From: a virus
Strand: one strand, 5' to 3'
Virus record (IMG/VR): IMGVR_UViG_3300033141_003168
Location: 32,001 to 96,000 of that record
DNA: 64,000 nucleotides
Below are positions 43,737 to 63,800 of the stretch, one piece after another. Position 1 is the first letter of the stretch, and each line of letters starts with the position of its first letter. The notes below the pieces were generated by a model. It was not told the origin of the DNA. It worked only from the letters and a program-made list of their open reading frames with translations, and searched no databases. The position numbers and the translations under genes are program-made.

Positions 43737-44789
43737 ATGGCGAAAAAAACTAAGAAAATTACAGGTGGCGCAAAGACACCCAAAGTCAAGAAGAAAAAGG
43801 GGCGTCCCGTCATTAAAGGTAATAATAGCCCCAATGGAAAGAAACGTCCCACCCTCGGCGATTTTCGGGATCGGAATTTGAAGGGTGGCAAAACAAAAAT
43901 CAAGAAGATTAAGAAAAAAAAATCACGCTCGTCTTGTGACGCCGTTTCACAAGCGAGTGCTATAGGAGAAAAGGAATCGCGGAAAGAAATTTCTCAGTAT
44001 CTATCTCCACAAGATACTACAGTAGAGATAGAGAATAATATAAGCGTAGAGGAAGCACAGGGAGAAGGAGGAAAGAAGTCACAATTAGGTACACGTAAGT
44101 CCTTAGAGGATGATACTATAAACAAGGAACGTATGAAAACAGGTACACGTGGTTCTTTAGATGATGATACCAAATTTCTCACACGTGAATCCGAAACAGT
44201 TCCACTTGACGAAGGTATGGAACGTATATCCGAAATTTCTTCTCTCCCGTCAACGTCTCCCCCAAGCCCCCCTCCTACTACCTCCTCCCTGCGCCTCCCG
44301 GTACAGACGTTTGGTAAGGGGAGATTCAAAATAACAAATGATGAATTACGCTCCTGCCTGGATCAGGGAATGAAAATCGTAGAGATTGCTACAGCTTATA
44401 ATATGAATCGCCGCTCTCTCACAAAACGTATCAGGAAATTAGAACAGGACAGCTTAGACCAGGTTCTACAGTCTGTCACAGCCGCAGGTGCGCCGGTATT
44501 GAATGTAGCAGAACAAATTTCTTTTCTTAACCGCGCCACGATAGATATTCTCAGGGATTCTAATACAGGAGCTAACACAAAACTTTCAGCAATAAAACGC
44601 GCAGAACAGCAGAATGAATTACAGGTCAGGATGCAGCAGATACTTCTCAACGTACAGGAGACACAGGAATTTCAGCGTGTAATTGTAGAAACCATAAGAG
44701 AACTTGATGTGACTTATCCCGGTCTTCGGGAAGTTTTCGTGAAGAGACTCCGCGTGCTGAAAGAATTAAAGGGTGTCGTAAAAAAATAA
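43737..44789 (+). CDS. HTH protein with long disordered N-terminus; candidate terminase small subunit
   Basis: Lys-rich and Ser/Pro-rich N-terminus, HTH 'GMKIVEIATAYNMNRRSL', helical C-terminus; last large + strand gene before terL. Confidence 0.4.
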   Translation: MAKKTKKITGGAKTPKVKKKKGRPVIKGNNSPNGKKRPTLGDFRDRNLKGGKTKIKKIKKKKSRSSCDAVSQASAIGEKESRKEISQYLSPQDTTVEIENNISVEEAQGEGGKKSQLGTRKSLEDDTINKERMKTGTRGSLDDDTKFLTRESETVPLDEGMERISEISSLPSTSPPSPPPTTSSLRLPVQTFGKGRFKITNDELRSCLDQGMKIVEIATAYNMNRRSLTKRIRKLEQDSLDQVLQSVTAAGAPVLNVAEQISFLNRATIDILRDSNTGANTKLSAIKRAEQQNELQVRMQQILLNVQETQEFQRVIVETIRELDVTYPGLREVFVKRLRVLKELKGVVKK

Positions 44790-44894
44790 ATCAGCTTAAT
44801 TTCTTTTTCCAAAAAACAATTTCCTCGCGTTTATTTTGTACAAATATTAGCTTATTCAAAGGGTGTCATAAGCTTTTTATAAAGGGTGTCATAA
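44768..44894 (+). repeat. direct repeats AAAGGGTGTCRTAA (3 copies; a fourth core at 43664)
   Basis: Copies at 44768, 44858 and 44881; AAAGGGTGTC also at 43664-43673. Confidence 0.75.
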
Positions 44895-45078
44895 AGTCTT
44901 AAAAATGTTTTCTATCCGTCCACCACTCGCCACAGCAGGAAAGTTTTTCATTTTAACTTCTTCTTCCCCAGTGACACACCGTGTTTAACTATTCGTGGTG
45001 GACGGCTTTTTTTATTTTGCATTTTCCACACCCCCCTTTATTTCCTCGTTTTCCTCTCAGCGGATTTTACTCCGCCAT

Positions 45079-45113
45079 ACCGCTCTTTGCATAATCGCAG
45101 GGAGCGGTTTTTT
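45079..45113 (+). terminator. probable intrinsic terminator
   Basis: ACCGCTCTTTGC-ataatc-GCAGGGAGCGGT stem followed by a T run. Confidence 0.65.
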
Positions 45114-45155
45114 CTTCGTTCTTATATTACATCCCCCTATGAAAAACATCTAATT

Positions 45156-45182
45156 TAATTACCCCGGTTCCCGTAGTAATTA
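45156..45182. repeat. 27-bp palindromic element, copy 9
   Basis: TAATTACCCCGG-TTC-CCGTAGTAATTA. Confidence 0.85.
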
Positions 45183-45406
45183 AATATTTTCCCACTACAT
45201 AAACTCCGCTTGAAATTCTCCATACTGGCAAATTCCCATTATTTTTGAAAATCGGCTTTTATTTTATACCCTTGAGCGCCTCTTCACGCGATTTTTAGAC
45301 ATTGCCGCTTGTCTTACTACATCCTGATAAAAGGATCGCTTAGAGCGCAACATACATATACTATAACGTATTTATGCGCAGCGGCGATGTTTATTGTTTT
45401 GTGAAT

Positions 45407-45433
45407 AAATTACAACGGAAACCGTAGTAGTTT
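45407..45433. repeat. 27-bp palindromic element, copy 10
   Basis: AAATTACAACGG-AAA-CCGTAGTAGTTT. Confidence 0.9.
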
Positions 45434-46096
45434 AATTACAGTAAATCCCTCCTGGTATCAATGAAATATTTCCCACAGTATTTGTACACAGCAGCGGGAG
45501 AGATCACGTAAGGGAAAGTCTTTTCTTCCTGCCGCACAGAAGATTTCCCGCTCCGGGGAAAACGCATAAGAAATAATTCGCGTAAGAAAAACTTTCCAGC
45601 GGAATATTCCCCACACCGGACACGTGTATAATGTAAGAGAAAAATGCTCTTAGAGAAAAAATTGTTCAGAGAAAAAACTCTCAGGAGAAATCTTTCCACC
45701 GTGCGCGGGACACAGCAGGGAGAAAAAACTAATCTGGTTTTTCGTTGTAATAAAAAAAGACTTTTCCTTAGCGGGATACCGGAGATAGATCGCGGAAAGA
45801 AATTCTCTCAGAGATCAACATACAAAAGATACTACAGCGGCGGTATAGTGGTAAGATTATTTTCCGCCGCCACTGTGTGTGTGGCGCGGTGCGCAGGGGA
45901 AAATCGCGCGAAATTACTGTGAAAGTTGGTGTGAAAATGTCTGAAATAAAATGCAGTTACGGAGATAAAAAAAGAGCGTGGGGTGTGGGGGATAGCTAAA
46001 TGGGCGTCCGAAATGAAGACCGTTTACAATTTGGGTAAGAAAAATATATATGTAAAAATGGAGTAAAAAATTTTTTGAAAAAATTAACCTGAAAAC

Positions 46097-47056
46097 TTAT
46101 GGAGTGGGAATGACGTTAGCAAATACCCTGCCTCTTCGTATCTCGCTTACCAGCCAGTATTTCAAATTGTATTGTTCTGAGAGTTCTTTTACGATTCCTT
46201 CGTGCCAATCGTTTTTGAGTTTATATTTTATCTTGGCGATTGTTTTTAAACTGGTATTGTGTTTTTCCGCGAGGCGTTTTAATTTTGCTACTTTCTTTTC
46301 AAAAATGCCTTTTTTAATTTTCTTTCTGCGGCGGCTGGAATTAAGTTTAGGAAAATTCAACGGCGCACCGTCTCTATCTGCACATTCGTCGCGCACCAGT
46401 GCTGCGAGTTTTGCCGTGTGATACGATCCCAAATTTTTACCCTTATAAATCGCGATCCATGATGTTCCTTCTCCTGATATACCGACATATTTGTTTTTTG
46501 CTTTTTTGCGTTTTCTTACAGTTCGTTTATCGAGAACAAGTTTTTTGCGAAATTGTTTTTTCTGTTCCGCTGTAAATTCCGGAAAATTTAAACAGGCAAA
46601 CTCGCCATGAAGTTTTCGTGCGGCTTCATCGTAAGCGAAAGCGGCATAATCTGGTTTTGAATAAGAACCAAGATTTTTATTTTTCCCATCGACCGCGATG
46701 ACTGTATGAAAATTTCCGCTACTCATTCTGTGTATTCCTTTGAAATGTCCTTTTCTCCTCGCGGGTTGATTCCATGCGTTTTGTTGTTTTGTGCAGAGGC
46801 GTAAATTTGATCTGCGGTTATCAAACTTATTTCTATTTTTATGATCGGGTATTAAATCGTCAGGCAGTTCGTCTATGTTATTCATTCTAAATAAAATAAT
46901 CTGATGTAAGTAGGTATCTTTTCGTTTTCCGTTTTCCTTACGGTTTCCATGTCTGTAGGCGTAACCCTTGTTACCAACACGCCAGGTGTATTCGGCAAGG
47001 TCGGCGTCTATCTTACTAATAAGGATCGTTTCACCTTTTGCTGTTTTCAATTTCAT
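46097..47056 (-). CDS. HNH endonuclease with AP2 DNA-binding domains
   Basis: 'DHKNRNKFDNRRSNLR' HNH, then two 'LGSY...AA..YD/RD...LNFP' AP2 repeats. Confidence 0.9.
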   Translation of the reverse strand: MKLKTAKGETILISKIDADLAEYTWRVGNKGYAYRHGNRKENGKRKDTYLHQIILFRMNNIDELPDDLIPDHKNRNKFDNRRSNLRLCTKQQNAWNQPARRKGHFKGIHRMSSGNFHTVIAVDGKNKNLGSYSKPDYAAFAYDEAARKLHGEFACLNFPEFTAEQKKQFRKKLVLDKRTVRKRKKAKNKYVGISGEGTSWIAIYKGKNLGSYHTAKLAALVRDECADRDGAPLNFPKLNSSRRRKKIKKGIFEKKVAKLKRLAEKHNTSLKTIAKIKYKLKNDWHEGIVKELSEQYNLKYWLVSEIRRGRVFANVIPTP

Positions 47057-47082
47057 TTTATTTATTCCCTTTCTGTCAACAT

Positions 47083-47111
47083 ATTATAATTTATAATATT
47101 TGAATTGTAAA
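47083..47111 (-). promoter_or_regulatory. sigma70-type promoter for the HNH-AP2 gene
   Basis: Minus strand TTTACA-17 bp-TATAAT. Confidence 0.7.
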
Positions 47112-47131
47112 ATTTTTTTCTTTTGCGTTTT

Positions 47132-47158
47132 TTATTACTACGGAAACCGGAGTAATTT
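47132..47158. repeat. 27-bp palindromic element, copy 11
   Basis: TTATTACTACGG-AAA-CCGGAGTAATTT. Confidence 0.88.
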
Positions 47159-47581
47159 CCGATCTTAAACCATCGTGTCTTGCTGAAAATCTTTGTACGG
47201 GATATGTTTAAAAAACCGTAGGCCATTCCAGTACCGGCACATTTTAAGCAGTTCTTCTTGTGTCCAATTCGGAGAAACATATTCTCTTTATTATCGTTTA
47301 CTTCAATTTCTATTTCGGCCATTATTATCTGCTTCATCTAACTGCTTCTTTCAAATCAGATTTTTATATCGTCCTGCAACGTCTATTGCTACACGATCCG
47401 GCTTCGCAATACGCGAACATACAGCGCATGTACTTAAATCGTCGCTGAGAAGAGTACAGAGTACGTCCAGCGGATAATGTTGCTGTAGAAAGCGTACCTT
47501 GCGAACCGGTGGCGGTAAGAGTCGAATCGTTTTCTTCTTACCGGGTTTGAATTCGAACAATTTCACTTTGATTTTTTCCTT

Positions 47582-48166
47582 TCAAAATAGTTTTTTAATG
47601 CTGTCAGCAACTATTACTATTGCTTCCGCAATATGTTCGGATTTAATAATATCTGAATCGTAAGAACTAAGTGCGAGAACAGTTCTTGCAACAACTTTGA
47701 TATTTTCTACGTGTTGCGGATACAGAGAATAATGTTTTACAGCTTGTTCGAGAAGTTCAAGTGCGGCAGGATCAATCTTACGCGGAACATCGGGCAATCG
47801 TGCTTTTCCTTCTTTGATGCGTTTCTTGATAACTGCAATTGGTTCGGCGAAATTTGTGACTATCTTACTTGCTTCGACCCGCGTCGCCTCGCAGATTATC
47901 GGGTAACGATCTAATTTCTTTTTAATCTTACTGTGTACGTGCATTACTTGAAACGTCGTACATTTACATTCCCTTGTGTAGTCTCCATAATAACCGCAAT
48001 AACAGGGTGCGGTTAAGTAGGTTTGTTTCTTCGTAAGAAATTCCTTTGTATAATTCCTGAGCGTCGGATGAAGTTCGAAAGCGGCGAAGATTAAAATGTT
48101 ATGATCTCCAGTTGCTGCTATTTCAATACACCTCTTTACACTTTCGTTTCCTGGCATTTGTGACAT
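47582..48166 (-). CDS. ComM/YifB (Mg-chelatase-like) homolog lacking the ATPase core
   Basis: 'GNESVKRCIEIAATGDHNILI', 'PCYCGYYGD..ECKC', 'LDR', 'KVART', 'EHIAEA'; no Walker A or B. Start at MSQM after AAGGAG. Confidence 0.75.
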   Translation of the reverse strand: MSQMPGNESVKRCIEIAATGDHNILIFAAFELHPTLRNYTKEFLTKKQTYLTAPCYCGYYGDYTRECKCTTFQVMHVHSKIKKKLDRYPIICEATRVEASKIVTNFAEPIAVIKKRIKEGKARLPDVPRKIDPAALELLEQAVKHYSLYPQHVENIKVVARTVLALSSYDSDIIKSEHIAEAIVIVADSIKKLF

Positions 48167-48194
48167 TGCGTTTTCTCCTTTATTTATTTTCAAT

Positions 48195-48221
48195 AAACTA
48201 ATCCGGTTTCCGTAGTAATAA
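48195..48221. repeat. 27-bp palindromic element, copy 12
   Basis: AAACTAATCCGG-TTT-CCGTAGTAATAA, upstream of the ComM-like gene RBS. Confidence 0.88.
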
Positions 48222-48511
48222 AAATTATTTCCCGAATACTTTTTGTCTGTATTCAACGAGTTCAACCGGATCGGAAATGTGTGTTACAAATCCCGTTGGT
48301 AAATCATTCGACCTTTCACGTAAATCTCCGCGCCTGCGTAAGACCATTTCCTCACCGTTGTCAGTTATCGTCAGCGTAAACGAACCGTCTTTGTTATGTT
48401 TGACGAGTTTGCCTATGACTCGGCGTCCGGTGAAAAAATCTACCTCGACTTCGAACTTGTCTCCGATTGTGTAACTGTAATCATTCATGTGTGTGCTCCC
48501 TTTTTGTTTTA

Positions 48512-48739
48512 TTAAACTTCCGTTTCGATTCCCGTTGCGATGTGTACTGCGGATCGAATATAATCTGAAAGCGAATTAAATCCGAGTTCCTTTGCCTTTC
48601 TCTGCGCGAGACGCTTGTTATACTCTTCGTCCTTATAGAAGATCATAACCGGCTTTTCAAAAATAGATTTGCGACCGGCACCGGCTCGAAAACCGCCCAT
48701 CGTTTTCTTCTGTTTAATCTTCGGCTGCTTTTGATTCAT
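48512..48739 (-). CDS. small DNA-binding protein (ribbon-helix-helix-like)
   Basis: 'GGFRAGAGRK' followed by 'AKELGFNSLSDYIR'. Confidence 0.6.
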   Translation of the reverse strand: MNQKQPKIKQKKTMGGFRAGAGRKSIFEKPVMIFYKDEEYNKRLAQRKAKELGFNSLSDYIRSAVHIATGIETEV

Positions 48740-49419
48740 GAATTCCTCCTTTCATCTTTATATAAATGTCTTTGAAATCTTTGTGTCTTGCTAATTGATT
48801 TTGTTCTGATCGGCCTTTCACCTGCAATGTCTCTAATGTATTGACTAACGAGCCATGCGAGCCACTCCTTACGCTCTGTACCGATACCATGTGCGGCTAC
48901 ATTAGAATTAAAAGGTTCTAATGCGCGTTTAATTTGTTCGGTGTATTTGCGATTTGCGGGATCATGTTTATATTGTTTTCCTGTCATTTTATCATTATCG
49001 GAAAAGTTAATTAAACAAATGTTCGAGGGTTCATGTCTGATTGTGTCGGTTATCGTTTCATAGGTTGCGCAAGTAATATAAACATCGTTTGCAATGTACG
49101 GCCATGTTCGGAGTGAAATTTTGTCGCTGTAACAATATGCTTCGATTTCGGGATTAAATTGACAGTTTAACTCCAAGGCTGCTATGCTGATTGCTTCTTC
49201 TACCGTTGTCGCGTTTTTTAATTCAACGTGTCGGCCTGTAGTAATTCCTTTTTTATTAGTGTGTTCGATTTCAAGAAAATAATAAGGATTATCACTTCCG
49301 TGATAAAAAGTAATTATGATATAATCACCATTCGCCATGTGTCCGCGAAGGGTATGTGATATTCCCTGACGTTGTAACTGAACTTCTTCACGTTCTCTGT
49401 TTTGTTTTGTGCTGTTCAT
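48736..49419 (-). CDS. hypothetical protein
   Basis: 227-aa ORF with GGAG RBS in the minus-strand operon. Confidence 0.55.
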   Translation of the reverse strand: MNSTKQNREREEVQLQRQGISHTLRGHMANGDYIIITFYHGSDNPYYFLEIEHTNKKGITTGRHVELKNATTVEEAISIAALELNCQFNPEIEAYCYSDKISLRTWPYIANDVYITCATYETITDTIRHEPSNICLINFSDNDKMTGKQYKHDPANRKYTEQIKRALEPFNSNVAAHGIGTERKEWLAWLVSQYIRDIAGERPIRTKSISKTQRFQRHLYKDERRNS

Positions 49420-49676
49420 GTTTTTATTCTCTCCCTTTGTAGTTTATATTCCTGCAATAAGCTTTTCTTTCTTAGTGGTTTCGCCGGTAATAAAATCCTT
49501 TTCATATTCAATCGCTTTGTTTTCTTCAACACTTGCGGGAGAAAATAAATAATAGTGAGAATCGGAAGGGAAAGGTTTATCAACGATAGAATAACCATAA
49601 TAACCGCTTACAATGTATTTACTCTTTTTGTTTTCCTTTACGAGTTTTACTACTTTTCTGACAGCTTGATAGATAT

Positions 49677-50129
49677 TCATTTTTTTATTCTCCTTTTTTT
49701 CTTAAACGAAAATCCATTCGTGTTGATATTTTTTCTGAATGACTTTCCGTCTGAAGTTTTGATCGTACACCAATTATCTTTCTGCATAACACAGCAATTT
49801 TCTTCTACGATTTTTGTTGCTTTCGGGCGGCGGCGTGAACCGCCCCATTCAAGATATTTCACGGTACAAATACCGTGATCTATAATTTCGGAGTCAGGAG
49901 ACTTCCATGTTTTCAATTCGGATAAAATTTCCAGCGCATCTTCTATATCGTAATAGTCTGTTGTGTTATACCAACTGGAAGTGTGATGCCACTCACACGG
50001 TTTCAGTAGTTCCTTTATCGCTGCTGTTTTTACTTTCAGTTTCCGTGCCAATGTTGATGCGGGAAAACGTCCTTCATTTTCTGCTGCTACTGCATTGTTT
50101 GATTTTGAGAAATCTACGTAACCTGCCAT
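49677..50129 (-). CDS. hypothetical phage protein
   Basis: AAGGAG RBS; 'SNNAVAA...EWHHTS...TDYY' motif. Confidence 0.6.
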   Translation of the reverse strand: MAGYVDFSKSNNAVAAENEGRFPASTLARKLKVKTAAIKELLKPCEWHHTSSWYNTTDYYDIEDALEILSELKTWKSPDSEIIDHGICTVKYLEWGGSRRRPKATKIVEENCCVMQKDNWCTIKTSDGKSFRKNINTNGFSFKKKRRIKK

Positions 50130-50355
50130 TTTTTTGTTTCTCCTTTTTTTATTTTATGCTTCTACAAAAGGCTCAGTTTGATTTTTTTCTTTGCGTGTCT
50201 GATTCAATTGTTTCTGAAGGCGTTCTATCCGGTTTCGGAGTTGCTTTTCACGATTCATCAAGTTAGTGTATTTCGGGTTTGCGTTGTAGGTTTTTCCTGT
50301 TTCCATTTTCATGTGTTCCTTTCTCCTTTTTGATTTTTTTAACCGCTGATAATTT

Positions 50356-50916
50356 TCAGGCAACTTCATTTTTAACATATTCGTCATAGGCTTTTTTCAG
50401 GCTTTTAAATCTTTTTTTCGAAACCCTGCAAGCCCTCCGGCGTTTTGTGTCAACCTTCGCCCGTTGTTTTTTCTGTGCTTTTTCCGGGTAGGGAAGCCTT
50501 TCTTCTACTAATTTTCTCACGGCATTTCTTTTGGCCCTTGCGGTTTCGAGATTGAAAAAAGATTTTGTCACAACTTCTTTTTTTGCGGCTTTCTCGGTTT
50601 CCAGTTTTTCAACTAAGCCTTCAGCCTCAGTGTACTCATAATTCTCTTTCGTTTTTTCGGCTTCGTTCGGCTCTTCTTCTTTTTCATAAACATAGTCGGG
50701 ATCGTTTTTCATATCTAAAAGATCGGCTATCAGATTCGACGCTTGATTTTTCGTTAGTTTCCACACCTCACACTGGCGATTCGCGTACCAGCTATGGACA
50801 TCGTGGCAGAGATTGAATAACTCTTGTTCCCAATTTTCGCCGTAAACTTCCTTCGCCAGGCTGGTTGCATATTTCACTTGTTTGTCGGTGGCCATATTTT
50901 CTGGATCGTATCTCAT
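50356..50916 (-). CDS. hypothetical protein, first gene of the minus-strand operon
   Basis: 'ATDKQVKY...LTKNQASNLI' motif; RBS and promoter upstream. Confidence 0.6.
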   Translation of the reverse strand: MRYDPENMATDKQVKYATSLAKEVYGENWEQELFNLCHDVHSWYANRQCEVWKLTKNQASNLIADLLDMKNDPDYVYEKEEEPNEAEKTKENYEYTEAEGLVEKLETEKAAKKEVVTKSFFNLETARAKRNAVRKLVEERLPYPEKAQKKQRAKVDTKRRRACRVSKKRFKSLKKAYDEYVKNEVA

Positions 50917-50946
50917 TTTTTTCTCCCTTTTTTATCTTACACTCAT

Positions 50947-50975
50947 ATTATAATGCCTCAACTTGAATTTGTAAA
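50947..50975 (-). promoter_or_regulatory. strong sigma70-type (early) promoter
   Basis: Minus strand TTTACA-17 bp-TATAAT with A/T tracts upstream. Confidence 0.75.
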
Positions 50976-51155
50976 GCGTTTTCAAAAGAAAGTTGGTTTC
51001 AAAAAGGCTTGGAAAACCCTACGTTTTTTAGATTTTGAGAAAAAAATTAAAAATAATTTGTTTAATTTTGCTGTAATTTTGCAACGGAACTGTCATTTTT
51101 TGGAAAAATTCTATTCATATCGGGTGGAGGCGTGAAGCGCGGGCGAAATGGCTTC

Positions 51156-51184
51156 TTGACATAAATGCTAAAATACGCTACTCT
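51156..51184 (+). promoter_or_regulatory. sigma70-type promoter
   Basis: TTGACA-17 bp-TACTCT. Confidence 0.5.
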
Positions 51185-51231
51185 GAAGGTGTGTGTGTTT
51201 GTGTTTAATTAAAAAACCGCTCCTGCCGTTT

Positions 51232-51259
51232 CCGGGCTACTAACTGGTAGCCCGGTTTT
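51232..51259 (+). terminator. hairpin / probable terminator
   Basis: CCGGGCTAC-taactg-GTAGCCCGG followed by TTTT. Confidence 0.6.
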
Positions 51260-51286
51260 CATTTTAAAACAATTTTTTTCAGTCTC

Positions 51287-51315
51287 TTGACATGATGGTA
51301 TCATGGTGGTATCGT
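51287..51315 (+). promoter_or_regulatory. sigma70-type promoter upstream of the head module
   Basis: TTGACA-17 bp-TATCGT with extended TG. Confidence 0.6.
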
Positions 51316-51351
51316 CAATTAAGATAAGAATTAAACTGAAAGGTATTAAGA

Positions 51352-51666
51352 ATGGCAAATACGCAACGCAATTTGGGCGCAATAAAAATAACCGCGAAAT
51401 TTTTAACGGGTATATTAAAAGCGACTGATTGTTTGCCACACGATGCGCAGGCCGTCGAACTCGTTGAACTGAGTGCTGACGAAATCGCCCTAATTGTACA
51501 TCATAAAACATTACCCCATTTACCAGAAGGAGTTAACATTCCTGAAATCGAATTGCGTCCCGGCGAAGGTAAGTTAAAGATAAAAGAAAACCTTCAGGCC
51601 GACGAAAATAGTAATGTGAGGACAACTATAACTAAAGGCAAAAAATATCCTTGGGAAGCAAATTAA
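51352..51666 (+). CDS. hypothetical protein
   Basis: 104-aa ORF downstream of the promoter. Confidence 0.5.
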   Translation: MANTQRNLGAIKITAKFLTGILKATDCLPHDAQAVELVELSADEIALIVHHKTLPHLPEGVNIPEIELRPGEGKLKIKENLQADENSNVRTTITKGKKYPWEAN

Positions 51667-54014: not shown

Positions 54015-55706
54015 ATGGACAAGAAAAATCAAAATAACCAAAGTGAAGAAGTCGATGATGCAGTGGTGACCGCAACGATTATAGAAACAGATTTGTTAAA
54101 GCATTCAACTCAGTTACAAATTACGAAAAAATCATGGGGCGGCACCAATGCTATATCACCTCCGCACGATCCGGTGGCGTGGGGTGCAATGCCTTCCTAT
54201 TCAACGCGGCTAACCAAGTGCATTGCAACTTATGTTCAAAACACCGTTGGGTACGGTTGGTTAATCAAACCCACAAAAGAAGTTGAAGATGCGTGGAAGG
54301 AGCTATCAGACGAATTAAAAAGGACATATAATATTCAAAAAAATCGCCTCGAAAAACTTTTCAATCGACCCAACAAAGAAATGCCGTTTACCGAAGTTAT
54401 GCGACAGGAGGGAACCGACGAGGAAGCAACGGGTAATGGATACCTTGAAATAGTCAGAAACTTGCGTGGCGAACCTGCTGAAATTTATCATGCACCGGCA
54501 AGTATAACTCGGCGTAAAGAAGGTACGGGTTTTATTCAAATGAAACAGGGCAAAACAAGATATTTCAAAGATTTTGGTGACAAACATATAATGAACAAAT
54601 CGACTGGTGAATATGAAGGTGATGAATTGCCACTTGAGGATCGTGCAACTGAGATTATTCAATTCAAAATTTATTCTCCGAATTCTCCTATTTACGGATC
54701 ACCGCGATACCTACCTGCTGCGCCTGCAATTTCTGGAGGAAGAGCAGCGGCGGTTCGTAATATGATGTTCTTCAAAAACAATGCAGTGCCGCCGATTGTA
54801 GTTACTGTCACCGGAGGCGCACTATCACCGGATTCCGTTGAGTCAATTCGTTCCTTTATGGCAACAGAACAGAAAGGTTTATCAAACCAACACAGGGCAA
54901 TGGTGTTGCAATCGGAATCAAGCGGTATCGGTACTCTCGGAAATTCCGGTGCAAAAATCGACGTTAAGGAAGTCGGAGTCGGATCAAAAGACGATGCATC
55001 TTTTATGGATTATCGGGCGGCAAATGATAATGAAATCAGAGAGGCGTTTGGTATCGGTGAAGTGTTCCTCGGAACGATGAAAGACATAACAAAAGGCAAT
55101 GCGGTCGAGTCGCGGCGAATCACAAATGACCAAGAATTCAAACCTGCGAAAAAAGTTAAGGAATATAAAATTCATTATACAATTATTGAGGATATGTTTT
55201 CGCAAGAAAAATCAATGAGTATGACTGATGCATTATCGAAGTGTTTCTCTGATGAAGATAATCTTAAAAAAGCAATGACGCTCTCACCATTAGAACGGCG
55301 GTATAAAATCGAAGACGAATTGGACAAACAGTTTATCAAGGTAATAAAGGTTGAAGGTGACGAAGTAAAATTTAAGTATCGGGCAATGGCAACACTTGAG
55401 TTTATTCAGCCTCGAATAACCGACCCGGTTGAAGACGCAAGAGTACAGAAAATCTACAGTGACCTTGCGGCACTTACTATAAACGAAATCAGACAGAACA
55501 TAGGTAAACAACCTTACACTCATAAGTGGGCTGACCTTCCCATTGCAATTCTTTTACAACTCGATAAGATCGAAAAGAAAAAAGTAAAGGAAGAAAGTAA
55601 TGGTGAAGTAGAAGTTCCAGAAACAAATGAAGATGACGGTGTTGAGGCGATTACGGATAAATTGTTGGCAATTCGCGATAGCATTTTAAAAGACATTCAG
55701 GACTAA
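54015..55706 (+). CDS. portal protein
   Basis: 'TGNGYLEIVR', 'IYGSPRY', 'FFKNNAVP', 'IREAFG', 'TINEIR'; follows terL. Confidence 0.88.
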   Translation: MDKKNQNNQSEEVDDAVVTATIIETDLLKHSTQLQITKKSWGGTNAISPPHDPVAWGAMPSYSTRLTKCIATYVQNTVGYGWLIKPTKEVEDAWKELSDELKRTYNIQKNRLEKLFNRPNKEMPFTEVMRQEGTDEEATGNGYLEIVRNLRGEPAEIYHAPASITRRKEGTGFIQMKQGKTRYFKDFGDKHIMNKSTGEYEGDELPLEDRATEIIQFKIYSPNSPIYGSPRYLPAAPAISGGRAAAVRNMMFFKNNAVPPIVVTVTGGALSPDSVESIRSFMATEQKGLSNQHRAMVLQSESSGIGTLGNSGAKIDVKEVGVGSKDDASFMDYRAANDNEIREAFGIGEVFLGTMKDITKGNAVESRRITNDQEFKPAKKVKEYKIHYTIIEDMFSQEKSMSMTDALSKCFSDEDNLKKAMTLSPLERRYKIEDELDKQFIKVIKVEGDEVKFKYRAMATLEFIQPRITDPVEDARVQKIYSDLAALTINEIRQNIGKQPYTHKWADLPIAILLQLDKIEKKKVKEESNGEVEVPETNEDDGVEAITDKLLAIRDSILKDIQD

Positions 55707-55710
55707 ATAA

Positions 55711-57780
55711 ATGTTGAAAGAAAAACAGAGGGTTGCGTTATCGTTACTTGACGATATAGTGCGTCTTACGTTAGGCGAATCCATCGGATTTATGAAGCAG
55801 GCGGGCGCGAAGCAAATGCAAGATTTTATTCTCAATCAGGAAAAAGAAGTATTCGATAGCATCCTCGCAGGTTTTGCCGATTCGATTAAGACAACCGATA
55901 AGCAACTTGCGGCAAGGGTCGCGAAGCTAACCGTTCCTGGCAATTTCACGGTGGCGAAAACCGGTAAGAGAATTTTGAAATCTTCTGCACAGAAGGATTT
56001 TCTGAAATGGTCTGAAAAAATTTGGGGCAAAGATATTTCAAGGAAGATAAATCAGAAGATAAACCGTACTATTGAGAAAGCGTACAGGGCCAGTAAACAG
56101 TTTGCAGCCTCATCCGGCAACCTTCCGAATATCTGGACTGCGAAGGACACGCGGGCATTAAACTTACTGGATAAGGGGTTTACTGGTTGGCTGAGTTCCG
56201 ATTATATCCGCGTTTCTGATCCGAGGATCAAAAATATTCTGAAAACCCAATTTGGGAAGGCGGTTGATACAGAAACGATTGCACGAAAACTCGAAGAAAA
56301 ACTTGGTAATACCTATAAAGATTATAAATCGTGGAATCAATTAGCAAGTTATCAAGTAAACCTTGCACGAAACGCCGGTCAGATTTATACTTATCAACAA
56401 AGCGGTATCACCGAAATTCAATACACCGCAATTATCGACAAGCGTACGACTCCGTTCTGTCAGGACATGGACGGCAGGGTGGTGTTTGTTGAAGACGTTA
56501 CAACACACACAGATAAATTGTTGTCGTTTGATAATCCCGACGCTATAAGAGAATTTAAACCGTTTGCATTTTCTGAACAAATAGGTAATACCAAAAAATA
56601 CAGGCACTTTGCAGGCGGTCATCAAATTAAGTTTCCAAAAACAAACGACCCAAAGTTAAACAGTAAAACTTTTGACAAGGCTGGCGTAATATTGCCACCG
56701 TTTCATAACCTGTGCAGAACAACTACCATAATATCTTCAAGAATTGTTTCTGACTTTGTTTCTCCGGTTGCTGCGGTTCCTGTTGGTGTTAAAACACCGG
56801 CGATGGCTCCAAGACCACCATTACTTGCTGTACCAAAGGGTAAACCACCATCAGTAGCCAGAGCGGTAGAAATGAAACCCGAAAAATTATTTTTTGAACA
56901 AATTCAAACGGCTGGTGAAATGGAATTGCCGGTTGTAAAAGGTGTTATGGAATTATTAAAGAAGAAAGCACCAGATAAATTTTTTCATAATCTTAATTCT
57001 CTTAACTTTTTTAATGAAAAGAATGCGGGGCTTTTATTTAAAAAATGGACGGGCGATAAAATGTCAAAATCAACTGGAGGGTTTTATTCAAAATTAAAAA
57101 GAGGCATGGTAGTACGAAATGATATGATACCTGGACTCGTGATGGACACACCCCTTACGCGCTTACGTCTTGCCGAAGAAGTAGCGTTTCACGAATTAGG
57201 TCATCATGTTGAATATAATCTTCTTCTGCATCCCAGTTATGTGAAAAAAGGTGCTCCTATATTGTCACGATGGCTGGATTACTCAAGAGCTATAAAACCC
57301 ATTGATCGAATTACGAGTTATGCAGGAATAAATGAAAAAGAACATTTTGCCGAAGCTTTTACTCACTATTTTCGAGGGGGTTCATCTAAGGCAATTTTAA
57401 AAGAACGTGAACCAGGAGCGTTTAAGATTATGAATGAACTTTCTGAAGCTTTCTCAAAGAGTTTGGCTGTCATGCTAAATGGTTTACTTGGGGAGTTTAA
57501 TTTTTTGAAGCGGGTAAAGTTATCAAAAGAAGAAAAGGAGTTAGAAAGAATATCAATTGAAGGCGTTGAATTTCTTTGGGGTGAAATAATACAAGAGAAA
57601 AAGGATAAGATTGCTTTTGAAATAGTTACATTTCTTTATCCAGGAAATAAATATTTTTCTGAAGCTGTTTTTTGGCATTTTTTACGTAAAGGTTATGATA
57701 AAAATGTGGCTGCCAAAATGGAAAAGAAAGCTAAGAAAATATTAAGTAACGTAACAATCCGCATGTTATCTATTATATAA
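55711..57780 (+). CDS. MuF (SPP1 gp7-like) head morphogenesis protein with C-terminal zincin metallopeptidase
   Basis: 'DKRTTPFC...PPFHNLCRT' MuF motifs; 'HELGH...ITSYA...EHFAEAF'. Confidence 0.85.
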   Translation: MLKEKQRVALSLLDDIVRLTLGESIGFMKQAGAKQMQDFILNQEKEVFDSILAGFADSIKTTDKQLAARVAKLTVPGNFTVAKTGKRILKSSAQKDFLKWSEKIWGKDISRKINQKINRTIEKAYRASKQFAASSGNLPNIWTAKDTRALNLLDKGFTGWLSSDYIRVSDPRIKNILKTQFGKAVDTETIARKLEEKLGNTYKDYKSWNQLASYQVNLARNAGQIYTYQQSGITEIQYTAIIDKRTTPFCQDMDGRVVFVEDVTTHTDKLLSFDNPDAIREFKPFAFSEQIGNTKKYRHFAGGHQIKFPKTNDPKLNSKTFDKAGVILPPFHNLCRTTTIISSRIVSDFVSPVAAVPVGVKTPAMAPRPPLLAVPKGKPPSVARAVEMKPEKLFFEQIQTAGEMELPVVKGVMELLKKKAPDKFFHNLNSLNFFNEKNAGLLFKKWTGDKMSKSTGGFYSKLKRGMVVRNDMIPGLVMDTPLTRLRLAEEVAFHELGHHVEYNLLLHPSYVKKGAPILSRWLDYSRAIKPIDRITSYAGINEKEHFAEAFTHYFRGGSSKAILKEREPGAFKIMNELSEAFSKSLAVMLNGLLGEFNFLKRVKLSKEEKELERISIEGVEFLWGEIIQEKKDKIAFEIVTFLYPGNKYFSEAVFWHFLRKGYDKNVAAKMEKKAKKILSNVTIRMLSII

Positions 57781-57821: not shown

Positions 57822-60800
57822 ATGGATTTAGAAAAAATTTCAGTACCTTATGAAAACCTCAATCAAATAAAAGAACTCGACGACGACGTACTCCTTGACG
57901 ATCACCGCTGGATGCATGTTTATTGGGCTAACTTAAAACGCGGAAATAAAATGGAGAATTGGGATAAAGAAATCGTAAAGAAAACCCATGCCGCAATAGT
58001 ACAGGAAATGTTACTTAGATTTTTCTTTCCCGCGATGGCACTTGAACTCGACCAGACAGAAGAAACTATTAAAGTTGTTACTGAATGGTTAGAATTAGGT
58101 GCAATGAAAGTTATAAGTGCCGCAGAGGGAATGGATTTAATTCGTACTGAAAGTTTTATTGAAAATGTTCATAAACACACAAAAATTCCACAAGGGATTT
58201 TAATTGCACTTTGGAATGTAGTTGAAATGGAATTAAATAATCGCGGTATGCCGGGAGGAAATGAACCGTCCTGGAATCAGGAAAAACAACAAAGTGGTTC
58301 CGGTCGTGGTTCGGCAGGAAAGCAGAGAGGCAGTTATAATAGTCCCACGTTCGCCTACATAGCAGTTTACGGCAAAGAACCTGATATACCTTTAAGCGGC
58401 AGAATAAACAGCCCTGAGAAGGAATGGAAAGATGGTATACTCGTAGACGAACATTTAAAACTCGAATGGCTTGATTCAATCGACGCAATCGAGGAACTTG
58501 AGTTGAGAGCTTCATGTGAAGGCCACGGTGAAAACAGGGTTACGCATGTGGTTGTTCGTTTAAAATCGCGTAACGAAACCGAAAGCAAAAAATTAGTTGA
58601 AGTGTTAAACAATAAAGACGATATTTATTCAAAATATGATGTAGGAACAGAAGGATATCCCCGAATAGTTATTGCGGGAAAAACGTGGTACGGTCAACCA
58701 GGTTGGAATGATTGGTGGGAGACTTTATCTGAAAAAATAAAAACGGCACTAAAAGCAATTAAGAAAGAGCTTGAAGAAAATTTATCAGTAGGAAAATCTT
58801 TACTCGTTTGTTCCAATTCGGAATGGTATTCAAAATATTCTTTACCGATCGCAGAATCTGACATAGAAGAAACGGATTGGATTGAATTTGAAAAAACGAA
58901 ACCGCCTTTTATGTCGCCCGGTGGCAAGATGCGGCAATCAAAACAACTTGTAACTTACATACCCGAACATAAGATTTACTGTGAACCGTTTGCGGGGGCG
59001 GCAAACGTATTATTTAGGAAAGAACCTTGCGAAAATGAAATTCTTTCCGATCTTGATTCGGATTTAATTGTTACGTGGAAGTTCATCAAAAGTTGTTCTG
59101 AAATTGATTTGGGAAAATTGTCAAGATTTTATTGGGAGCGGCCCAAAGATAAAAAACATTTTAAATCTATTTCAGATCAAGAATGCGATAGCATGCTTGA
59201 TACGGTTTATAAGTTTATGTATGTTCGTTACTGGGGTTTCCGAGGCGGTAAAACATTTAGTGAATCAATCGCACAAGATCGCACGGCACTTCAAGGATCG
59301 GCATGGGAACGAATTAAAGGGAAAATAGTACGGGCTAAAGATCGAGTTAAGAATGTGAAGTTCGAGCGGGCGAATTACGAAGATGCCATCGCAAAACACG
59401 ATTCCAAAATTACGTTTTTTTATCTTGACCCGCCTTACGGCAAGACAGGTGCACACTATTGGAAAACTTTAGATTATGAAAAACTCCTAAATGTGGTAAA
59501 AAAAATAAGAGGCAATTTTTTATTGCAACTTCACAATGATGATAAAATAAAAAATTTATTTGGAAAGCATTTTAAAATTTACACAATCACTGCTCGATAT
59601 ATTAGAAATCAATCGTCGCCAGACATGGGACAATTATATAATGAGACGGAATTACTTATAAGCAACTATGAATTAAAAACAAGTGCAAGTAAGTCATTTG
59701 CAATGGACGATGATCTTGCACCCGTGGCATCTTCAGGAATAGAGTTGGGTAAAGAAATTCAGTTTGATGACATTCTTTCCGACTTCAACGACGATTATGT
59801 AATTGATCCGGCTTTCATTTCTCTTGGCGGGAACATTCTTTCGGGTGAAACAGATGAAATGGTTGATTACCACGTGAGTGGAAATTTCGGGCAAGATTTC
59901 AAAGTGCCACTTGAATTCAGACTTGGACGCGGTTCATCTTTTACCGAACGGCAGTCAATAAATTATCATGCCGAAAAAACGGATGTAGAATTAGAACCGC
60001 TATATGCACTCGTAGCGCGAAGGATAAATAAGAAAAATACTATCATACAAATGAACTTTACGGATCGCGTTTCTACTCCGCAGAATCCTCCTGATTTAAT
60101 TACTCCGGAAACCGGAGTAGTTTTTGAAAAAAGTGGTGAAACAAATCTGATTTTAAAAGAAACCGTCATAAATGAGGCAAAGGCATTTATACTTGTTACG
60201 CCATTCGTTTACGTAGTAGGTGGTGTAGTTACGCAAGGCGCAACCAAAGGCGATGTAGACATTCTTATTCGAGGACAGTTCGATGAACCGTTTCTTAGTA
60301 AAATTACACAACCGCTAATTGATAGATCGAGTACACCAAAACGACTTCACTTTCTTGACGACAAATATCACGGCCCATTTACTGCTCACGTTCCGATTTA
60401 TGAATTGATGCTTGTGCCGGTAAGTTTGCTGGAAAATTCAGATACAAAAAAACAAAGAGTGGCTTCGCCAGAATTAATAAGGGAGGCGGCGCGGTCAAAA
60501 TCAGAAGATCGTATAGAAATGTTTCGCTTCTTCACCGCAATGAAACCGACGAAAGGATTTTTTCCGGAACAACGACAAACAATAGATGCGTTTTTATCGC
60601 TTTTTAAGGAAGACAATTTTCCAGTAATGGCGACTAAAAAATATGATGGTATGGCTTCGCTGTGTTGGAAGTCCGGAAAGCGTGTAGAAATATGGTCTAT
60701 CGAAGGAGAAAATAATACCGACCGTTTTCCGAATGTCGTAAAAGAAATTCAGGAACTAAATGCGGATGAACTCGCTTTGCTTATTGAAATTGAAATGTGG

Positions 60801-63800
60801 GACGACGGGAAACATTTACCGCGCGAAGCGACTGTTGGTTATGTACATTCTGATAGTCCCGCTGATGATTCACAGATAACCGCAAACGTGTTTGACATAG
60901 TTTACGTTAAGGGCCTTGAGACAGACGTAAAAGACTTACCAGAGGGCGATATACACAAAGAACCCTTTTCGATACGTGACGACGTTTTGAAGGCACTTTC
61001 GTTTGAACAAGAGACCGATGGTGTACCTGATCCTAAAATTAAATTGAATCGCACACCGTCGCATAAAGCAGAAAATGCGGAAGAACTAAAAAAACTTACG
61101 AATAAATTATCGGCTACTCCGGGATCGGAAGGGGTTGTTGCCAAACCAGCGAAAGGAACTTACGTGCTTCATGGTCGTCGCGGAGAACAAATTAAGTTTC
61201 ATGTTTCCGCCGTTGCAAATGTAATCGTAATAAAAAGAATTCCCATTTCGGGAGCAAAAAATGTTTACACTTATTTATTTGGTTTTAAAGTTCAAGGACA
61301 GGACATTTCCGATAAAAAACGGGTAAGGATGCGCGGTAAAGAATATCTTTCTTCAGGGAAAACATTTAATACTTCTCTACTCGCAAAAGTCGGTGAAGTA
61401 ATAGAAATCGAATTTGAACAACTTAATTACATTATTAATCTCGATTCCGGCGAAGAAGATGTGACTTTGTGGGCACCGCGAGTAATGAGGAAAATAAATG
61501 TCGCAGGAGATTCAATTGCTGGTGTGATTAAAAAGGCAAAAGATGAAAATATTTTAGTTACGAAGGAAATTGAAAACAAAACGATAGTTTACAAAACGTG
61601 GGATAATTATAATGAAAATTTTCTTAAATCATTATTTAATGAGTATAATGTAGAATGGATTAAAGATGTTTCTATTAATAATGATTCCTTTAGTAAATCT
61701 GATTTTTATAATGATTTTAGTAAAAAAGCTGATTCACTTAGCGGTCTTATTTCAATAGACTTATGTAGCGGTGCGGGTGGATTATCGCTCGGTTTAGAAA
61801 AGGCTGGATTTTCCACCGCTATTATGTCTGACTTAGATGATGATTCAATGATTACGGCAGAAAAAAACTTTAAGAACACTGTTATTTGGAAAGCAGACCT
61901 ATTTAAATTAGACTTCCAAAAACTTCATAAATCACTTAGAGGAAAACAACTTAATCTTCTGGCAGCAGGTCTTCCGTGTCAAGGACATTCAGTCAGAGGT
62001 AAAGGTAAACATTCTGAGTCAGTAGATGAAATAGAGAATACACACGAGTCTTTTAATAAACTTTATAAATATTTTCTTAAAGGCGTTATGATACTACAAC
62101 CTGAATTTATTCTTATAGAAAATGTTCCCGGAATTTTAAGTAATGAAAACGGGAAATATGCTAATTTAATCATATATGGATTAAAAAAATTAAATTACGA
62201 TGTTGAATATAAAATTTTAAAAGCTGAAGAGTATGGAGTTCCACAAATAAGAAGAAGAGTCTTTTTTATTGGAAATAGGCTTGGCCTTCCGATAATTTAT
62301 CCGAGAAGCACCGAAAAAAGAATTTCAACTTGGGATGCGATTAAGGATTTAAGTAATAAATCTGAAGACGTGGATTTTGGGCACATAATTCCGAAACACT
62401 CAACAGAAACCAAAAACAGAATTAGTCAAGTGAAGCCCGGAAAAAAATATGTAACTGAAAGTGGAAAAGAGGGTTATGCTTTAAGGAGAATACCTAAAGA
62501 TAAACCAGCTTATACAATACTTGCTTCAACTACGCTTATACATCCAACTCTTGATCGTTTTTTAACGCCGCGTGAATGTGCAAGGATACAATCATTTCCT
62601 GATTCTTTTAAATTTCATGGAGGTTCTCAAAGTCAATTCCGGCAGATAGGTAATGCGGTTCCTCCTGAATTAGCAAAAGCCATAGGCTTAGTTATGAAAA
62701 AACAATTAGTAAATTACAAAAATTCAAAAGAAAAAATTTATAAAAATTTTGAAAAACAAAAAGACCCATATATGATTATTCCCGATGAAAATGAAATTTA
62801 TAATTTTGTAGCACAACATCATGCCAGAGGCAAAAGTATCCACACCGATCTTCGTATGGAGTCCGAAGATAAAGATTTTCTTATTGGGTACACACTGGAC
62901 GATCAAATAAAGAGTGCGATTAAAGAACCGATTTTAACTTTAGCGCAACTAAAAAAAGTAGATGCAGACGATTCCAATTTCAAAATAAATTGGTCGGATG
63001 GAACATGGGATAAAAGAAAACGCGGTGAAGTGTTAGTAAATGTAAATATCAATACTCAGAAGAAAGCAATAGAACCAGTTGAATGGTTGGGCTATGAAGG
63101 AGTTGTTGAAAGCGGTGGCGAAGAAAAACCCGCACCCGGTGCGACACGATTTTTTCCCGGCGTGTTTCATGTAGTAGATAAAGGCACGGTAGAATATGGT
63201 TCGCAACGAAGTTATTTTCATGAGTATTTTTTAAGCGGAAAAAAATTAAATTATAGAATCATCGTCAGACTTTTAAACCTTCCCGCTGGAACAGAAGGCG
63301 ATATTCCCAAATCGTGTCTGGTTGCAGATGATTTTATTATAGGAAAAGAAGAAAATTTAATTACTACGGAAACCGGATTAGTTTATAAAGATTCGTTGAA
63401 AGCAGAGGAAATTTTACCACCTTCGGAGCCTCAAGAAGTATCAGTACCGGGGCCAATTCGGCTGACCATGAAGCCCATAGATCAAAGACCTTATGTACTT
63501 TCAAAGCGAGCAGTCGATAAAGGTTGGATGCCTCCTGATAAAAAATCGGCTTTGCCAAAACAAATCAGAAAAAAGATTCCTGATGAATTTCAATATTGGA
63601 AAGTTACTGGTACGAAGGCGCGAGACATTAGGGATTCGCTTGTCAAAGCTATTAAAGACGGCGTGGTAAAAATAGAGTTTGAGGAAATTCGTAAACAGGA
63701 AGAGGATAAAGAAATCAAGGGTGATTATACTTTCAGCTACCAATGGTTCAAGGGGCCGGTTGTAGTACGCGAAGGCCCGTCAAAAGAACAGTGGCATATT

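Follow-up and report, generated by a model that had tools for sequence, protein, structure and literature searches.

A hydrophobic-x-Lys motif at the module junctions of a giant polyvalent phage protein suggests processing by an S78-type prohead protease

Phages and plasmids frequently encode polyvalent proteins, whose cutting into working enzymes has only been predicted since 2017. A giant open reading frame (ORF) of an uncultured, metagenomic virus raises the question of whether such a chain is cut, at which positions and by which protease. The ORF lies in a stretch of 64,000 nucleotides (bases 32001-96000 of the 110,331-bp IMG/VR record IMGVR_UViG_3300033141_003168), which will be referred to as the window. 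A previous reading of this stretch, made from the sequence only, had proposed that a recurring motif with a central Lys at the domain boundaries of the protein represents candidate maturation-protease sites. Here, we confirm that the motif is genuinely and non-randomly associated with the junctions of the giant ORF, and we propose that the junctions may be cut after the Lys by a prohead protease of the S78 family encoded directly downstream. As a whole, the interpretation given in the sequence-only reading was partly supported.

The modules of the giant ORF are arranged in the order N-terminal domain, Dam, nucleotidyltransferase (NTase)-like region, ATP-dependent ligase, C5-methyltransferase (C5-MTase), putative phosphoesterase 1 (PE1), middle domain and PE2. 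Pfam matches were obtained for Dam (amino acids (aa) 366-593), the ATP-dependent ligase (929-1121) and the C5-MTase (1312-1626), and the ligase fold was confirmed by Foldseek. For the PE region, neither a single-sequence PDB search nor Pfam yielded a match; only a profile of 10 homologues scored, matching the archaeal LigD-type 3'-phosphoesterase structures 3p4h/3p43 (E 0.003-0.005) in an alignment which spans the QxHxRG..H.D.R strand (active-site His-x-His ... Asp-x-Arg). Single-sequence PDB searches with the N-terminal domain and the NTase region gave no useful match. In this region the genes run from the large terminase through the portal, MuF, the giant ORF and the S78 protease to the capsid protein and then the tail sheath. 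The start of the S78 gene is located 9 nt beyond the end of the giant ORF. Its product of 479 aa has a prohead protease domain of the S78 (HK97) type and, behind it, a scaffold-like tail (the protease-scaffold ORF). With unrelated domains in one chain (Dam, ligase, C5-MTase and the PE profile match), a location in the head-morphogenesis region beside MuF and portal, and associated peptidases (a zincin in the upstream MuF, the downstream S78 protease and a C-terminal S78_2 domain in relatives), the giant ORF qualifies as a polyvalent protein as defined by Iyer et al. 2017 (PMC5512222).

The strict motif was defined as a hydrophobic residue, any residue, Lys and one of Ser, Thr, Gln or Ala (h-x-K-[STQA]), and the loose motif drops the hydrophobic requirement. 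All eleven words listed in the sequence-only reading were found in the giant ORF at the positions given there, with FEKT at aa 356, FEKS at aa 768 and FEKQ at aa 1643. However, FSKK falls outside the pattern x-x-K-[S/T/Q/A] under which it had been listed, the fitting word SKKA lying one residue further on, and ASKS, TKKQ and SLKA have no hydrophobic third-last residue and fit the loose motif only. For aa 907-2106, domain boundaries were set without reference to the motif by AlphaFold with a shallow alignment. Confident domains were obtained for the ligase (911-1257), PE1 (1648-1818), the middle domain (1877-1953) and PE2 (1963-2101), and low-confidence linkers outside the Pfam methylase at 1258-1311, 1627-1647, 1819-1876 and 1954-1962. 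Of the 16 strict sites in this part of the protein, seven were located in the linkers, which make up 162 residues (odds ratio 5.2, p 0.003), and counted per Lys, sites were present at 7/20 in linkers versus 9/117 elsewhere (p 0.0025). Each of the four main linkers carries at least one site. When the Lys position was swapped for other residues, none of them showed a preference for linkers, and the four h-x-E-[STQA] words all lie outside the linkers, though these contain 19 Glu. The enrichment in linkers over folded domains on which the earlier proposal depended was thus observed in this region, and it is specific for Lys.

Since the AlphaFold model of aa 1-880 was poor, the whole-protein test was based on ten domain ends fixed by outside evidence, namely the ends of free-standing homologues, Pfam and the model confidence (pLDDT). 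At nine out of the ten domain ends, a loose-motif site lies outside the domain at a distance of up to 12 residues (binomial 4e-5; circular-shift control 4e-4), and at six out of the ten this is a strict site (5e-4). The claim that the motif recurs at domain boundaries consequently holds for nearly all ends that could be fixed in this way.

The protein is rich in Lys (10.2%), and the caveat raised in the sequence-only reading that chance matches are to be expected is correct in so far as composition alone predicts many of them; the observed counts nevertheless exceed it. K[STQA] was observed 52 times versus 41.8 expected (p 0.04), [FVIL]xK[STQA] 20 times versus 11.1 (p 0.007) and FEK[STQA] three times versus 0.2. 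In a genome-wide test each of the 134 ORFs was shuffled and h-x-K-[STQA] was counted. The protease-scaffold ORF ranked 1st (10 observed, 3.8 expected), the giant ORF 3rd (23 observed, 13.8 expected) and the MuF ORF 9th (10 observed, 6.1 expected), and no enrichment was found in the remaining 131 ORFs pooled (179 observed, 175.5 expected). Pooling the three adjacent head genes resulted in 43 sites versus 23.5 expected (z 4.3). In a residue-swap control of these three genes the signal was obtained for Lys only; as Glu, Arg and Asp in the Lys position gave no enrichment, the pattern is not an effect of amphipathic helices. The residue at P1, directly before the cut, is Glu in T4 (L/I-x-E) and in phiKZ/SPN3US-like giant phages (A/S/G-x-E). 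Such a Glu-type code does not apply here, h-x-E-[STQA] being unenriched (22 versus 18.1 expected, z 0.9), and a gp21-type specificity is accordingly not seen. The two words previously claimed for MuF, FMKQ (aa 27) and FSKS (aa 581), are both present in that protein, in which F-x-K-[STQA] is found five times. MuF is probably packaged as well. Across nine relatives, the scaffold-only parts of the protease-scaffold proteins contain 32 sites versus 15.3 expected.

A conserved edge of the folds themselves might also produce motifs at domain ends; this explanation, the main competing one, fails for both modules tested (Dam and PE1), given the ends of their free-standing forms. In the Dam subfamily, 76 out of 118 free-standing homologues start exactly 6 residues before the GGK motif, with their Met aligning to T359, and they mostly end 0-3 residues past ELLISN[FY]. 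The motif was detected in 11 of 108 leads and in 3 of 108 tails of these free-standing Dams. The PE1 domain is present in at least 620 representative clusters (50% identity), nearly all of them in multidomain proteins of 400-2100 aa, and the PE-first proteins inspected mostly start 2-4 residues before Asp-Pro-Tyr, at or within one residue of the Lys of the fused forms. In the fused forms, the leader preceding PE is conserved: among the aligned proteins its third-last residue is hydrophobic in 59/83, and Glu was counted in 35/96, Lys in 71/112 and Gln in 57/124. As the free-standing forms of Dam and PE lack the motif, the element accompanies only modules with an upstream fusion, and judged from these alignments the predicted cut would regenerate the natural N-terminus of the module.

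The orthologue in a sister phage (P0003, 2101 aa) shows 55% identity in the linkers and 64% in the domains. Seven out of nine linker sites keep the Lys and the small residue, the other two keep it with a shift of 1-2 residues, and in-domain sites are kept at 9/21. In P0003 the Dam module is located elsewhere, after the C5-methylase, where it is bracketed by two FEKQ junctions; the phage studied here has a single FEKQ at that place. This relocation fits the earlier suggestion that new cargo can be added as a cassette between sites. More distant relatives carry hydrophobic-x-Lys words before and after Dam, before and after the ligase and before PE, and in 127 diverse polyproteins h-x-K-[STQA] was counted 1177 times versus 835 expected (z 13.5), with Arg, Glu and Asn near 1.0. 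An IMG/VR search for close relatives using the giant protein as query found none, and the same search with P0003 yielded three partial loci. The sites are compiled in Table 1.

Table 1. Positions of the giant ORF, its junction sites and related features in the window.
Feature	Window position	Strand	Remarks
Portal protein	54015..55706	+	LLKH and TKKS near N-terminus
MuF protein	55711..57780	+	C-terminal zincin metallopeptidase (HELGH ... EHFAE); candidate alternative protease
Giant polyvalent ORF	57822..64000	+	2106 aa in full genome; ends at genome 96142, 142 nt beyond window
FEKT (K358/T359)	58887..58898	+	directly before Dam module
ASKS (K624/S625)	59685..59696	+	8 residues past end of Dam fold
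Palindrome copy, in frame	60094-60123		in linker of giant ORF
FEKS (K770/S771)	60123..60134	+	NTase-1/NTase-2 linker; Phe codon within in-frame palindrome copy
TKKQ (K877/Q878)	60444..60455	+	just before ligase module
VYKT (K1258/T1259)	61587..61598	+	exactly where the confidently folded ligase module ends
FLKS (K1269)	61620..61631	+	ligase to C5-MTase linker; sister phage IIKS
FSKS (K1292)	61689..61700	+	ligase to C5-MTase linker; sister phage FDKS
SKKA (K1302/A1303)	61719..61730	+	overlaps FSKK; 10 residues before Pfam start of C5-MTase
MKKQ (K1627)	62694..62705	+	Pfam end of C5-MTase; sister phage IIKQ; absent from sequence-only list
FEKQ (K1645/Q1646)	62748..62759	+	2-3 residues before confident start of PE1
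IPKS (K1830)	63303..63314	+	58-residue low-confidence linker after PE1; sister phage LPKS; absent from sequence-only list
Palindrome copy, in frame	63352-63388		in linker of giant ORF
SLKA (K1860)	63393..63404	+	same linker as IPKS, just after palindrome copy
IRKQ (K1958/Q1959)	63687..63698	+	9-residue low-confidence linker, middle domain to PE2

Comparison of single positions with their homologues gave a similar picture. At the position of FEKS the sister phage has VLKT, without the exact palindrome core described below, and at the position of TKKQ the pair K-Q or K-A is kept in four out of five homologues. The words aligned with VYKT in homologues are MYKS, IYKG and IFKG. Between IRKQ and its counterpart VVKA in the sister phage the motif is kept with the Lys alone identical.

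The downstream protease mentioned in the sequence-only reading was identified as an S78 prohead protease by a Pfam match to PF04586 (36.5 bits, cut-off 21), with phrog_80 matching as well. Moreover, an S78_2 (XkdF-type) domain is present in 50 of 147 representatives of the PE family and is the last domain in 49; in those relatives the enzyme chain and the protease are thus one polypeptide. Fusion of assemblin-like peptidases to the C-terminus of polyvalent proteins has already been noted by Iyer et al. (PMC5512222). The HK97 S78 protease cuts the capsid protein at K103/S104, within an unstructured stretch (PMC10275583), and the Lys-specific enrichment in linkers observed here is what exposed or unstructured S78 sites with Lys at P1 would look like. 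The closest named relatives of the protease of this phage are Herelleviridae proteases, and the capsid protein of one such phage contains I-S-K-T at aa 23-26. On these grounds, the S78 protease of this phage presumably has an HK97-like specificity for Lys.

These findings suggest, as the most likely of the readings considered here, that the junction motifs are Lys-at-P1 prohead-protease sites releasing modular cargo enzymes, a prediction of cleavage for which we consider the prospects of being right and wrong to be evenly balanced. The giant ORF would represent a polyvalent cargo protein produced together with the head proteins and presumably packaged into the head, in which short flexible linkers, each carrying hydrophobic-x-Lys followed by Ser, Thr, Gln, Ala or sometimes Gly, would join the enzyme modules. 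The downstream S78 (HK97-type) prohead serine protease would cut after the junction Lys and thereby split the chain inside the procapsid into separate enzymes (Dam, NTase-like, ligase, C5-methylase and 3'-phosphoesterase units), whose new N-termini would match those of the free-standing homologues and which may then be delivered into the host. As each module has its own flanking sites, modules could be moved or added with processing undisturbed. The N-terminal aa 1-345 (window 57822-58856) are common to P0003 and P0006, gave no match in Pfam, PHROG, PDB or ESM Atlas and could be the capsid-targeting part.

Several observations weigh against processing at these sites. One related polyprotein stops three residues after FEKT, leaving nothing downstream to be released, and some distant homologues have Gly, Val or Ile following the Lys, which would demand a relaxed cleavage specificity. 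In-frame copies of a dispersed DNA palindrome are found next to FEKS and SLKA. Neither the portal nor the capsid protein showed enrichment when tested; the words LLKH (aa 27) and TKKS (aa 37) attributed to the portal in the sequence-only reading are indeed present, but in a protein where the motif is no more frequent than expected. The motif was defined after inspection of the giant ORF and MuF, and its exact limits are therefore post hoc. Three of the ten sites in the protease-scaffold are positions conserved in the protease fold of all relatives, which partly weakens this protein as an independent hold-out, and the scaffold-only parts of two relatives among the nine are devoid of any site. 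Furthermore, with an alignment of 13 rows AlphaFold modelled aa 1-1200 poorly except for the ligase (mean pLDDT 53), and the linkers in aa 1-880 rest on homologue ends and rearrangement breakpoints only.

The motif could instead be a linker element that is never cut, acting as a docking motif for scaffold, portal or capsid interior, or as a helix or strand cap, in a protein which remains one long chain. In one relative it stands at the very C-terminus without a module after it, and the residue following the Lys is loosely defined, both of which agree with such a role; transfer in unprocessed form has been reported for the N4 virion RNA polymerase and for several polyvalent proteins of plasmids (PMC5512222). 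An uncut element is nevertheless rather unlikely in our view: Dam and PE proteins that are free-standing or have the module N-terminal do without the motif and their ends coincide with the bond between the Lys and the next residue, one third of the family has the protease fused in cis, and Lys at P1 agrees with the HK97 site. If the junctions are cut, the enzyme responsible might also be a different one, either the zincin metallopeptidase of MuF or a host protease, possibly acting after injection. MuF does possess a HExxH zincin domain, preceded by a Pro/Val/Ala-rich linker and matching Pfam PF07737 (ATLF, anthrax lethal-factor family) with 35.2 bits, and metallopeptidases were favoured as processors of polyvalent proteins by Iyer et al. 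2017 (PMC5512222). However, distant relatives which keep the motif carry a fused S78_2 domain, the Pfam zincin is absent in the five of them that were checked, and the HK97 precedent for Lys at P1 concerns S78, and we regard another enzyme as very unlikely.

It has also to be considered that the motif has no function at all and that the counts reflect a Lys-rich composition, inherited module edges that were counted repeatedly, relics of A-rich gene leaders and in-frame palindrome copies. The high Lys content of the giant ORF, the non-independence of homologous sites, the two sites adjoining palindromes and the post hoc definition of the motif all point in this direction, as does the finding that a Lys codon precedes the start in 23 of 134 genes. 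This pre-start rate of 17%, however, cannot yield nine out of ten junctions, and a leader relic was therefore rejected as a sufficient cause. The shuffle, circular-shift and residue-swap controls all pick out the junction Lys, the motif is kept across clusters of less than 50% identity and lacking in free-standing forms, and the three FEK sites share just 9 nt, attributable to codon choice. We thus regard the absence of any function as very unlikely. Repeats at the DNA level as the origin of the FEK sites were rejected on account of the same 9 nt, and internal translation starts at the junctions were rejected as the codons following the Lys are not start codons.

Processing after Lys by the S78 protease can be compared with several known systems. 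Polyvalent proteins as described by Iyer, Burroughs, Anand, de Souza and Aravind in 2017 (PMC5512222) combine two to fifteen functionally unrelated domains per polypeptide, and like the giant ORF they join many unrelated enzyme domains in one chain, are encoded in the head module beside MuF and portal and are associated with zincin and assemblin-like (prohead) peptidases. Packaging and processing by an associated peptidase were already predicted in that work (PMC5512222). It names the peptidases and describes no junction motif (the word 'linker' is absent), whereas a junction motif was found here; what is new is accordingly the site code, and processing by an associated peptidase is not. The domain set also differs, as Dam, C5-MTase, ATP ligase and two putative LigD-type PE modules make up a kit for DNA methylation and end repair, unlike those in PMC5512222. 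In HK97 the protease gp4 (S78) belongs to the same family, is likewise encoded beside its substrate and cuts at an unstructured Lys/Ser site (PMC10275583). There, one scaffolding domain is removed from the capsid protein, whereas about a dozen sites are predicted here across a chain of cargo enzymes, and the capsid protein of this phage, unlike that of HK97, shows no clear site.

In T4 and the phiKZ/SPN3US-like giant phages, gp21-type prohead proteases process internal head and ejection proteins while the head matures, and numerous packaged proteins without a structural role are cut at sites with a short consensus (PMC5694885, PMC10052503, PMC9026906). Those substrates are mostly single proteins losing propeptides and the protease is of another family, in contrast to the multi-enzyme chain described here. 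The Dar system of phage P1 (DarB, DdrB) likewise places large DNA-modifying anti-restriction proteins into the head, with DdrB being processed and an HK97-like protease present (PMC9024508, PMC5512222), but its components are encoded by separate scattered genes, DarB is targeted via N-terminal residues, and no junction code is known.

The PE module alone is found in at least 620 clusters at 50% identity, and the protease is the last bead in a third of the proteins. We tentatively suggest that tailed phages might possess a widespread beads-on-a-string cargo system, in which modules flanked by hydrophobic-x-Lys and a small residue would enter the procapsid as parts of one chain and be freed by an S78-type protease. 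For dsDNA phages this would amount to a genuine polyprotein strategy of the viral kind, whose readable site code would allow modules to be exchanged between phages. As the junction motif is tied to one protease family and occurs in hundreds of protein clusters, the question of processing becomes directly testable. If the motif holds, the mature products of polyvalent proteins would be predictable from sequence, the exchange of modules between phages with intact processing would be explained, and a route for loading chosen proteins into phage heads would be suggested; the methylation and DNA-end-repair kit would then be delivered as separate enzymes and not as one 240-kDa chain.

Further variation was observed among the relatives. 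One of them (P0161, 2016 aa) contains a Hint module and a LAGLIDADG endonuclease (intein) just before the ligase, and this chain combines a protein splicing element with a fused S78_2 protease. At three further loci (L022:5076-9974, L020:7396-9978 and L017:894-3071), a multi-enzyme ORF is located directly 5' of a related protease (44-55% identity). These ORFs comprise other modules, e.g., a PNK-type phosphatase and a 2H phosphoesterase, so that the position is constant and the content variable.

The palindrome adjoining two of the sites is imperfect and approximately 31 nt long, with the core TACGGAAACCG, a 7-bp stem and a 3-nt loop, and 18 copies are present in the genome. In addition to the two in-frame copies in linkers of the giant ORF, 16 further copies were found (e.g., at genome 5401, 16253, 39526, 58448, 66366 and 101788). 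Most copies are intergenic, 10-40 nt 5' of a ribosome-binding site and start codon, and the ORF at genome 101753 has one at its start. The palindrome may act as promoter, operator or RNA hairpin. N4-type virion RNA polymerases use hairpin promoters, which the stem-loop form of the palindrome resembles. In the sister phage, the palindrome core is absent at the place aligned with the linker of window 60094-60134 (L011:11420-11470). This stretch contains a short inverted repeat of its own, then an AT-rich segment and a word similar to AAAGGAG, and resembles a buried intergenic signal.

The 110,331-bp record carries direct terminal repeats, and the major capsid protein shows 31% identity to capsid proteins of Streptomyces phages. 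Within the window, GC and AT skew flip at 44000-51600, where minus-strand ORFs (46097-50916) form a divergent block just before the terminase. Beyond the window, a 153-aa protein is encoded between the capsid protein and a 310-aa head protein (genome 99005-99466; L009:10006-10467), and it shows a weak match to a C2H2 zinc finger at aa 124-146, which is unusual for a phage head module.

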